Shown piece by piece: positions 23,151 to 23,392 of a DNA stretch of 64,000 nt (positions are counted from its first letter, which is position 1; the number at the start of each line of letters is the position of its first letter). The stretch lies in NCBI RefSeq assembly GCF_013167455.1, contig NZ_CP038328.1. One strand, 5' to 3'. The position numbers and the translations under genes were made by a program. This DNA is from Escherichia coli O157:H7 (GTDB taxonomy: Bacteria > Pseudomonadota > Gammaproteobacteria > Enterobacterales > Enterobacteriaceae). The notes beneath the pieces were generated by a model. That model was not told the origin of the DNA. It ran no database searches and saw nothing but the letters and a program-made list of their open reading frames with translations.

Positions 23151-23366
23151 ATCCCTCTCATCCACGTTGTGGTAAAGCGGCGAGTATTCTTGCTGATACT
23201 CCTCATTGCTATTTCCACCTCCCCCTTTACACCTTAAGGCTGTTCCCACGCACAAAACAAAATATTTATGCCTGGTTGAGTAAATAACCTTATTGTTAGT
23301 GTTGATATACTGGGAGATGATAACCCCGCAATTTCATTATTCATTGTTCTCCCATAGGATGAGGTT

Positions 23367-23392
23367 TCCCGCCGTAACTGGCGGGCTTTTTT
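23367..23392 (+). terminator. Orphan rho-independent terminator with no annotated upstream gene
   Basis: CCCGCC-GTAACT-GGCGGG followed by a T7 run. Confidence 0.6.

Follow-up and report, generated by a model that had tools for sequence, protein, structure and literature searches.

Why does the spacer between minE and the convergent autotransporter gene of Escherichia coli carry a second intrinsic terminator, well beyond the one that closes the minCDE operon, with no annotated gene between the two? An earlier note on this DNA described a plus-strand GC hairpin followed by seven T residues about 220 bp past the minE terminator, and offered three readings of it: the end of an unannotated small RNA, the end of a small protein gene, or part of the gene that has been disrupted here, left as a remnant. 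Here we examine the site within a 64,000-nucleotide stretch of E. coli O157:H7 DNA (referred to as the window; all positions are numbered from its first letter), combining comparisons within E. coli and with Escherichia albertii with published transcript-end and Rho-termination data from K-12. The terminator turns out to form the edge of a conserved block, and this block most likely represents a candidate unannotated gene for a small regulatory RNA, of which no transcript has been detected.

Results

Gene context and annotation of the spacer

The features discussed in the text are collected in Table 1. The spacer between minE and the autotransporter remnant in the window is 100% identical to that of E. 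coli O157:H7 PV15-279. On the minE side it begins with the operon's own terminator, whose hairpin has a fold energy of -19.6 kcal/mol. On the other side lies the convergent autotransporter remnant, whose homologues carry Pfam domain PF03797 and whose terminator (-14.2 kcal/mol) is 87% conserved against E. albertii. The E. albertii autotransporter reading frame is long and unbroken, extending over at least 910 aa up to the contig edge. After those of E. coli and E. albertii, the closest other autotransporters are yejO paralogues, which occupy a different locus. In Salmonella, minE adjoins different genes, and the intergenic region downstream of minE may therefore be lineage-specific.

That the locus holds no annotated gene, as stated earlier, is borne out in every genome inspected, K-12 included. 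None is annotated in the spacer of K-12 MG1655, O157 PV15-279, EDL933 or four other RefSeq genomes, and no gene calls fall within it in 10 further contigs. ARAGORN found no tRNA- or tmRNA-like structure in 22500-24500. A search of the whole window against Rfam 15 at gathering thresholds gave no match at the site, and the best scores from lax scans of 23270-23400 were 8-19 bits against thresholds of 38-90 (E-values 0.7-7). The near-matches included RseX (18.8 versus 50 bits) and MicA (16.2 versus 41), and all of them were far below threshold.

Table 1. Coordinates of annotated, predicted and candidate features in and around the minE-autotransporter spacer
Feature	Position	Strand	Description
minE coding sequence, last gene of minCDE	22826-23092	+	ORF list; annotated minE in homologous RefSeq records
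minE intrinsic terminator	23117-23149	+	12-bp stem 23117-23144, loop of 4, T5
C-rich, G-poor tract, rut-like	23184-23274	+	C 35%, G 9-10%
36-codon ORF (MNNEIAG...)	23234-23344	-	GGGAG-N4-ATG; rejected as gene
Candidate promoter, model b (preferred)	23293-23321	+	-35 TTGTTA 23293-98, 17-bp spacer, -10 GATGAT 23316-21
Candidate promoter, model a	23303-23311	+	Extended -10 TG-n-TATACT, no -35; predicted start ~23318
32-codon ORF	23317-23415	+	ATG 23317, stop 23413-23415; rejected as gene
Candidate small RNA	23328-23393	+	~63-66 nt (model b); ~75 nt from 23318 (model a)
Invariant, predicted single-stranded body/seed GCAAUUUCAUUAUUCAUUGUUCUCCCAUAGGAUGAGGUUU	23328-23367	+	Anti-Shine-Dalgarno UCUCCC, two CAU triplets
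Second ('orphan') intrinsic terminator	23368-23393	+	6-bp GC stem, 6-nt loop, C+U7
Convergent autotransporter terminator	23428-23451	-	ACTGCGC-TTCG-GCGCAGT + TTTTCGTTT
YpjA/EhaD-like autotransporter C-terminal beta-barrel remnant (K-12 ycgI locus)	23464-24219	-	ORF list, RefSeq homologues

A second intrinsic terminator downstream of minE

The second hairpin lies 224 nt past the minE terminator on the plus strand. It reads CCCGCC-GTAACT-GGCGGG at 23368-23385, followed by a single C and by seven T residues at 23387-23393, and its fold energy of -12.3 kcal/mol was equalled by one of 200 shuffles. We scanned both strands of the window for strict terminators, defined as an uninterrupted stem of 6 bp or more, five or more of them GC pairs, with a loop of 3-8 nt and six or more T among the next eight positions. 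There were 11 such sites, whereas 20 dinucleotide shuffles averaged 0.25 +/- 0.43, and the second terminator is therefore not a chance match. Both the sequence and the scan therefore confirm the hairpin and its T-run as first described.

The terminator is kept in E. albertii with a run of seven to eight T residues, and every haplotype sampled retains between six and eight. A G-to-A allele, carried by roughly one in four of the sequences sampled, reduces the hairpin to -5.1 kcal/mol and adds an extra T.

The terminator forms the edge of a conserved block

Of 5426 complete E. coli genomes, 5308 contain the spacer. Within the species, substitutions and several indels make its first 220 nt variable, and the stretch from about 23316 to the T-run shows almost no variation. 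When 89 nt covering this stretch were used as query, 5310 of the 5316 matching E. coli records reached at least 95% identity, and the entire intergenic region reached only 90-95% identity, with indels, in 1652 records. Between 23334 and 23373 there are zero variable columns among 46 E. coli haplotypes, a figure in which positions 23342-23369 were fixed by the search pattern itself.

Comparison with E. albertii outlines the block from both sides. Identity between the two species is about 93% in the coding DNA of minD and minE, falls to 27-60% over 23090-23250, rises to 63-80% over 23250-23325 and to 97-100% over 23325-23385, and drops to 23-33% over 23385-23425, past the hairpin and T-run; the 40 nt at 23328-23367 are 100% identical. 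Conservation thus stops abruptly on the 3' side, at the final T of the run, and tapers off on the 5' side, a combination that fits a plus-strand unit of promoter, RNA and terminator. The block is the same in three E. albertii-type sequences of independent origin: one genome from the species scan, one metagenome and one obtained by a protein-anchored look-up. A run of about 60 near-identical bases within a strongly diverged spacer requires purifying selection, and by our own arithmetic the chance of sixty identical bases at 70% identity per site is about 5e-10.

The known range of the block is narrow. A 20-mer scan of one genome per species, covering about 100,000 species, returned E. albertii as the sole true homologue; the E. 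coli representative was itself missing from the matches, so that the scan ran without a positive control. Four further matches had no flanking similarity and are chance. A 28-mer scan of metagenomes recovered 74 loci, all of the E. coli or E. albertii type. Within E. coli, an ST131-type allele carries three changes inside or beside the block, and about 2% of genomes have a deletion from just past the minE terminator to ymgI, from which it follows that the region is dispensable.

The element is found at a median of one place per genome and a maximum of two. The window holds one copy at up to 3 mismatches, and no paralogous copies were found in the E. coli genomes or in the window. A repeated intergenic element (REP/BIME, ERIC or similar) was ruled out on this single-copy status. 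No phage record matched the element. Thirteen plasmid records did, and because all are from E. coli, all are non-mobilizable and several are chromosome-sized, we read them as mislabelled chromosomal sequence; a mobile or foreign origin was rejected on these two grounds.

Nor does the block appear to be what is left of the disrupted gene. That gene is convergent, lies on the other strand and has a terminator of its own (Table 1). In E. albertii, furthermore, the block is present beside an unbroken autotransporter frame, and it is therefore not debris of the gene disruption in E. coli.

Transcript ends and Rho-dependent termination

Published Term-seq data from K-12 place 3' ends at 1224224/5(-), corresponding to window positions 23146-7, at the minE terminator (Adams et al. 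2021, PMC7815308 supplement 1). The supplement holds three entries for these ends, and its three growth conditions are LB at OD 0.4, LB at OD 2.0 and M63 (PMC7815308). Across the same three conditions there is no 3' end at 1223978-1223985(-), the positions expected for the second terminator (PMC7815308), and a transcript ending there, which the earlier note proposed to look for, is accordingly not seen in the published K-12 data. Window positions convert to the minus strand of K-12 (NC_000913.3) as 1,247,371 minus the position, and to that of EDL933 (NZ_CP008957.1) as 1,774,045 minus the position, which puts the region of interest at about 1,223,975-1,224,080 and 1,750,650-1,750,760, respectively.

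Between the two terminators, data obtained with bicyclomycin (BCM, a Rho inhibitor) define an 'orphan' Rho-termination region that peaks at 1224064(-), window position 23307 (PMC7815308 supplement 2), with a Rho score of 24.9 and p = 4e-67 (PMC7815308). Without BCM, 230 reads were counted upstream of 23307 and 18 downstream; with BCM, the counts were 293 and 571 (PMC7815308). The counting windows are 800 nt wide and are unable to place an initiation site. With BCM there is more RNA downstream than upstream, which suggests that transcription initiates at or beyond about 23307 on the plus strand, at a position that 800-nt windows do not localise. Just upstream of the peak, the C-rich tract has a C/G ratio of 3.4-3.9, higher than the window's 99th percentile, and could plausibly serve as a site at which Rho loads (a rut site).

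Since minE 3' ends fall at the first terminator and a Rho region lies between the terminators, the second terminator is not the end of the minE mRNA. The possibility that the sequence is a conserved 3' UTR of minE, raised earlier as a reason to discount the site, is contradicted by the same observation.

The arrangement could still serve minCDE as a fail-safe, in which the hairpin and Rho together block read-through from running antisense into the autotransporter gene, with no separate functional RNA. Three termination signals do stand in series on the plus strand between convergent genes, a Rho-dependent region has been measured among them (PMC7815308), and no independent transcript or strong promoter has been detected. 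The order of elements is also that of fail-safe tandem intrinsic and Rho termination at operon ends: an intrinsic terminator, a C-rich Rho region and a hairpin, between convergent genes. However, such a system requires just the hairpin and T-run. It has no need for 40 invariant nt ahead of the second hairpin, and leaves their 100% conservation unexplained. Unlike this upstream block, minE's own terminator and the remaining spacer have diverged; a common allele weakens the hairpin and not the block; and Rho already terminates transcription upstream of the second hairpin. We consider the fail-safe explanation unlikely.

Small reading frames overlapping the block

Two small reading frames overlap the conserved block, one on each strand. 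The plus-strand frame does run through the hairpin, as had been noted, and is present in the list of open reading frames, where it is entered with a TTG start at 23293..23415 (40 aa). Neither frame is stable across strains. The ST131-type allele, matched at 99% identity or more in 566 of 5316 records (about 10%), has a 1-nt deletion at GATAA-CCCGC that frameshifts both. The plus frame is also broken in haplotypes L022 and L064, the minus frame in L022, L032 and L064, and further haplotypes carry a 7-nt duplication or additional indels. Across 48 haplotypes, the length of the product ranges from 4 to 69 aa for the minus frame and from 12 to 61 aa for the plus frame.

Both frames contain many non-synonymous polymorphisms, and in the minus frame these are dense over residues 12-19 within a single species. 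The first six codons of the minus frame show zero synonymous change between species and the remainder diverges freely, which argues that the constraint is on nucleotides and not on a peptide. The breakage and high variability of both frames lead to the same conclusion. Products of the two frames are essentially absent from a collection of 15 billion proteins: the plus-frame product was not found, and the variants looked up gave one exact minus-strand variant, whose cluster comprises three sporadic calls of a 'hypothetical protein'. A table of small reading frames from ribosome profiling has no entry in the interval. On the evidence of these comparisons neither overlapping frame is coding, and the suggestion that the terminator marks a small protein gene is not upheld.

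The minus strand nonetheless offers an alternative account of the conservation, in which the block would supply the 5' UTR, GGGAG motif and first codons of a small gene running from 23344 to 23234, possibly cis-antisense or part of a type I toxin-antitoxin-like pair. A perfect GGGAG-N4-ATG does lie in the most conserved part, with a chance of roughly 2% in a 40-nt block by our estimate; most E. coli, and E. albertii as well, keep 36-39 codons of this frame free of stops, and some of the differences are synonymous; and the three sporadic annotations stand in GenBank. Against this are the interruptions in the 566 ST131-type records and in L022, L032 and L064, together with the spread in length and the dense non-synonymous changes at residues 12-19. 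The lack of synonymous change in the first six codons, set beside the free divergence of the rest, is the reverse of protein-level selection. The peptide, as read from its sequence, has no membrane-spanning hydrophobic stretch, no promoter is evident to us in 23386-23428, ribosome profiling lists no small frame, and the conserved T-run and hairpin would have no role on the minus strand. We regard a minus-strand gene as improbable.

The resemblance to type I toxin-antitoxin systems and to cis-antisense pairs such as symE/SymR lies in a terminator-bearing RNA that would be exactly antisense to an opposite-strand Shine-Dalgarno sequence and ATG. It differs in that the local opposite-strand frame is unconserved, not hydrophobic, without an evident promoter and frameshifted in about 10% of genomes. 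A type I toxin-antitoxin assignment was rejected because the antisense geometry is present but the toxin reading frame is neither conserved nor hydrophobic.

Candidate promoters

In the promoter search that the earlier note suggested, a sigma-70 scan found no promoter in the interval at a 9/12 cut-off, and two plus-strand candidates lie below threshold. The preferred of these, model b, has 8 of 12 consensus matches and a predicted start at about 23328-23330, exactly where full conservation of the block sets in. In its -10 region every E. coli haplotype and E. albertii share ATGATA, and its -35 element is polymorphic. A variable AACCCC/ATACCY stretch and the ST131 deletion both fall between the -10 element and the start, placing them where changes are tolerated. 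The extended -10 element of model a varies among haplotypes (TATGCT, TATCCT, TACACT, TATTCT, CATTCT) with A2 and T6 retained, and its TG is seen in O157 only. Both models are candidates, predicted from their motifs.

The canonical-TSS table from Cappable-seq of EDL933 has no entry in the interval. A sigma-28-like arrangement, TAGTGTTG-N11-GATGATAA, was a partial match by eye that is not conserved and was rejected, and inspection by eye gave no convincing sigma-E, sigma-32 or sigma-54 motifs.

A candidate small RNA

Transcription from model b would yield a 66-nt RNA predicted to form a weak 5' stem that displays UUCAUUGUUCUCCCAUA in its loop, with the terminator after it. Shuffled sequences fold about as well, the difference being non-significant (z = -1.46). 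The fully conserved 23328-23367 segment is predicted to be mostly unpaired or in a loop, as is characteristic of the seeds of Hfq-dependent small RNAs. The 3' portion, GGUUU-CCCGCC GUAACU GGCGGG-C-U7, likewise has the terminator form of such RNAs, with a U-rich stretch ahead of the hairpin. The Hfq-binding module reported by Otaka in 2011 and Ishikawa in 2012 is reportedly made up of a U-rich stretch, a GC hairpin and at least seven U residues. The U-rich stretch, GC hairpin and U7 of the candidate match this layout. A duplex scan against the whole window gave nothing above shuffled controls except the self-antisense match, and one of 15 neighbouring translation-initiation regions scored at a level reached by 2 of 200 shuffles, too little for significance when 15 regions are tested.

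We tentatively propose, with a confidence somewhat below an even chance, that the site encodes an Hfq-type base-pairing small RNA of roughly 65 nt, that its seed, UUCAUUGUUCUCCC, is anti-Shine-Dalgarno, and that a C-rich Rho-dependent terminator shields it from transcription reading through from minE. In such a model, minCDE transcripts stop at the minE terminator, as the published Term-seq shows. Remaining read-through would be removed by Rho, loading on the putative rut tract at 23184-23274 and terminating near 23307 within the published region. A weak promoter, for which TTGTTA-N17-GATGAT is the best candidate, would start transcription near 23328. The product, of about 65 nt, would consist of GCAAUUUCAUUAUUCAUUGUUCUCCCAUAGGAUGAGGUUU, the CCCGCC/GGCGGG hairpin and U7. 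Its invariant A/U-rich stretch, containing UCUCCC and CAU, may pair with target mRNAs around the Shine-Dalgarno sequence and start codon and so block their translation, and the UUU-hairpin-U7 module would be expected to bind Hfq, given the known architecture of such RNAs. The gene is apparently silent in standard laboratory culture, and may be unmasked once silencing by Rho or H-NS is lifted. The fuller proposition, that the small RNA is limited in these scans to E. coli and E. albertii, is silent in the laboratory possibly through Rho or H-NS, and acts on its targets through an anti-Shine-Dalgarno seed, is one that we hold as possible and rather more doubtful.

Of the three readings first offered, an unannotated small RNA is the one that the evidence favours. 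The terminator closes, on the 3' side, a block that is about 100% conserved between species and varies very little in E. coli; expression is not borne out, as no Term-seq 3' end is seen in K-12 under three conditions. We also count against a small RNA the 18 reads over 800 nt downstream without BCM, the sub-threshold promoter with its polymorphic -35 element, the hairpin-weakening allele, the ST131 changes, the deletion in about 2% of genomes and the negative target searches in the window and among neighbouring genes. Furthermore, a genuine ribosome-binding site on the opposite strand would account just as well for exact complementarity to an SD-N4-ATG sequence. The missing transcript, the weak promoter, the weakened alleles, the deletions and this ambiguity are what keep our confidence in a small RNA just short of the midpoint.

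A conserved DNA-level element, whether bound by a regulatory or nucleoid protein or serving recombination or DNA structure, with the hairpin incidental, would also accord with nucleotide-level constraint on a non-coding sequence with no detectable transcript, in a region that is AT-rich and adjoins horizontally variable DNA. Sixty contiguous invariant base pairs, however, far exceed typical binding sites. The element is single-copy and ends exactly at the T-run of a canonical terminator, and there is no nearby promoter or gene for it to regulate except the candidate RNA. We attach little probability to this explanation. Alleles that weaken the hairpin or carry multiple changes in some lineages, the roughly 2% of genomes with the deletion and the lack of expression in K-12 would suit a decaying relic, a former small RNA or gene end now being lost and conserved by short divergence time or low local mutation, but flanks at 23-60% identity indicate high neutral divergence, under which sixty identical bases need selection, and a relic seems to us similarly implausible.

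Discussion

Our analysis confirms the observation of a second terminator downstream of minE and partly supports its interpretation as the end of a small RNA gene; the interpretations as a small protein and as a gene remnant are not supported. The element is a candidate small RNA that falls outside any named family. We found no description of it in literature on ycgI, minE, ymgI, ymgJ and b1173, on small RNAs and Hfq, or on the core sequence. The interval is covered by a region enriched in a filamentation screen of UTI89, which the authors of that study themselves ascribe to a possible linkage with minCD (PMC6206680).

The intergenic Hfq-dependent small RNAs MicA, RseX, RybB and OmrA/B offer the clearest comparison. 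The candidate would resemble them in its size of about 65-75 nt, its conserved single-stranded seed, and its U-rich stretch, GC hairpin and tail of at least seven U residues. It likewise lies between convergent genes, with conservation confined to the RNA body, and its sole Rfam near-matches fall in families of this class. It differs from these RNAs in having no sequence homology to them, in being known here from sequence alone, and in having been found only in E. coli and E. albertii.

By analogy, the closest conceptual relatives of the candidate would be lineage-restricted, weakly expressed small RNAs such as EcsR1 and EcsR2. These two lineage-restricted E. coli RNAs, encoded between uspF and ompN and between yagU and ykgJ, are supported by RNA-seq and 3'-RACE (Raghavan et al. 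2015, PMC4350180). The candidate has in common with them an intergenic position, a range of E. coli and close relatives, and low expression. They differ from it in their loci and in their expression support, and the minE-ycgI locus is unmentioned in PMC4350180. Identity of the candidate with either EcsR1 or EcsR2 was rejected, as both map elsewhere.

If the candidate is not a small RNA, the locus is still a clear-cut case of termination signals arranged in series between convergent genes, with a 60-bp ultraconserved block that would be unexplained. If it is real, the most intensively studied bacterial genome holds, next to its min cell-division operon, a small RNA which, being absent from Salmonella and unexpressed in standard conditions, would have escaped two decades of screens. 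It would expose a blind spot, in which expression and comparative screens alike overlook genes that standard media leave silent and that Salmonella lacks. The autotransporter/ymg region has been linked to biofilm formation and Rcs signalling, and a position between this region and the min operon would, for a real small RNA, give testable ideas on what it controls. A conserved regulator of narrow host range would thereby be added to a catalogue of small RNAs that is often treated as nearly complete.

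Species range of the conserved block

The exact 20-mer probe drawn from the conserved block of the minE-autotransporter spacer is present in approximately 98% of complete E. coli genomes, yet a scan of one genome per species with the same probe did not return the representative of E. coli, that of any named Escherichia species besides E. albertii, or Shigella. Either the block is missing from these representatives, or they escaped detection in the scan. The scan therefore does not firmly establish that the block is absent beyond E. coli and E. albertii.

Deletions and duplications around the conserved block

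In ~111 of 5426 E. coli genomes the minE terminator leads directly into ymgI; these genomes have neither the remainder of the spacer with its conserved block nor the autotransporter remnant and ymgJ (an example of the junction is included in the table). A different deletion is seen in the metagenome contig L078, where the sequence from directly after the T-run of the orphan terminator to ~23725, inside the autotransporter remnant, has been removed; this contig retains the conserved block without its downstream neighbour. The seed contains a 7-nt tandem repeat (TTCATTA TTCATTG, 23334-23350). A third copy of this repeat, found in a single contig (L022, ~4490-4530), looks like a slippage duplication.

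The variable, poorly conserved part of the spacer is overlain by a 45-codon ORF (23118-23255, minus strand), which has received sporadic 'hypothetical protein' calls in a few O157 draft genomes and belongs to a cluster of seven.

Gene arrangement and transcription on the autotransporter side

Between 23464 and 26364 the autotransporter remnant, which ends at ~24219, adjoins a regulator gene, OmpT and an alpha/beta-hydrolase, and the arrangement over 23300-27300 is common to 285 genomes. It differs from that of K-12, where a ycgI remnant of 344 nt adjoins ymgJ, and from those of O157 strains PV15-279 and EDL933, in which IS1203 lies within the autotransporter gene or beside it. Within the remnant, GCATGTTGTAACTCA (23721-23735, plus strand) resembles the core of the replication-terminus Ter sites (TerB ...GTATGTTGTAACTAA...); the Ter-like core has one match in the window versus 0.10 expected by chance, allowing at most one mismatch.

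Features of the window and of a compared E. coli genome
Feature	Coordinates	Strand	Basis or context
minE terminator to ymgI junction	L007 3000-3150		E. coli GN4738
HTH/cupin-type regulator	24328-24930	minus	adjoins autotransporter remnant
OmpT	25411-26364	plus	near autotransporter remnant
Alpha/beta-hydrolase			near autotransporter remnant
C0299 RNA	16665-16743	minus	Rfam, gathering threshold
IS009	34570-34768	minus	Rfam, gathering threshold
ALIL pseudoknot of IS3-family element	1103-1219	plus	Rfam, gathering threshold
ALIL pseudoknot of IS3-family element	6654-6770	minus	Rfam, gathering threshold

For EDL933 (L100, NZ_CP008957.1), published Cappable-seq data record a transcription start site at 1749792(+) in 9 of 9 conditions. 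This site, in the stretch 1749787-1749829, falls between the IS1203 end and the autotransporter remnant and suggests an outward-reading promoter at the end of the insertion sequence, driving transcription of the pseudogene toward the spacer.
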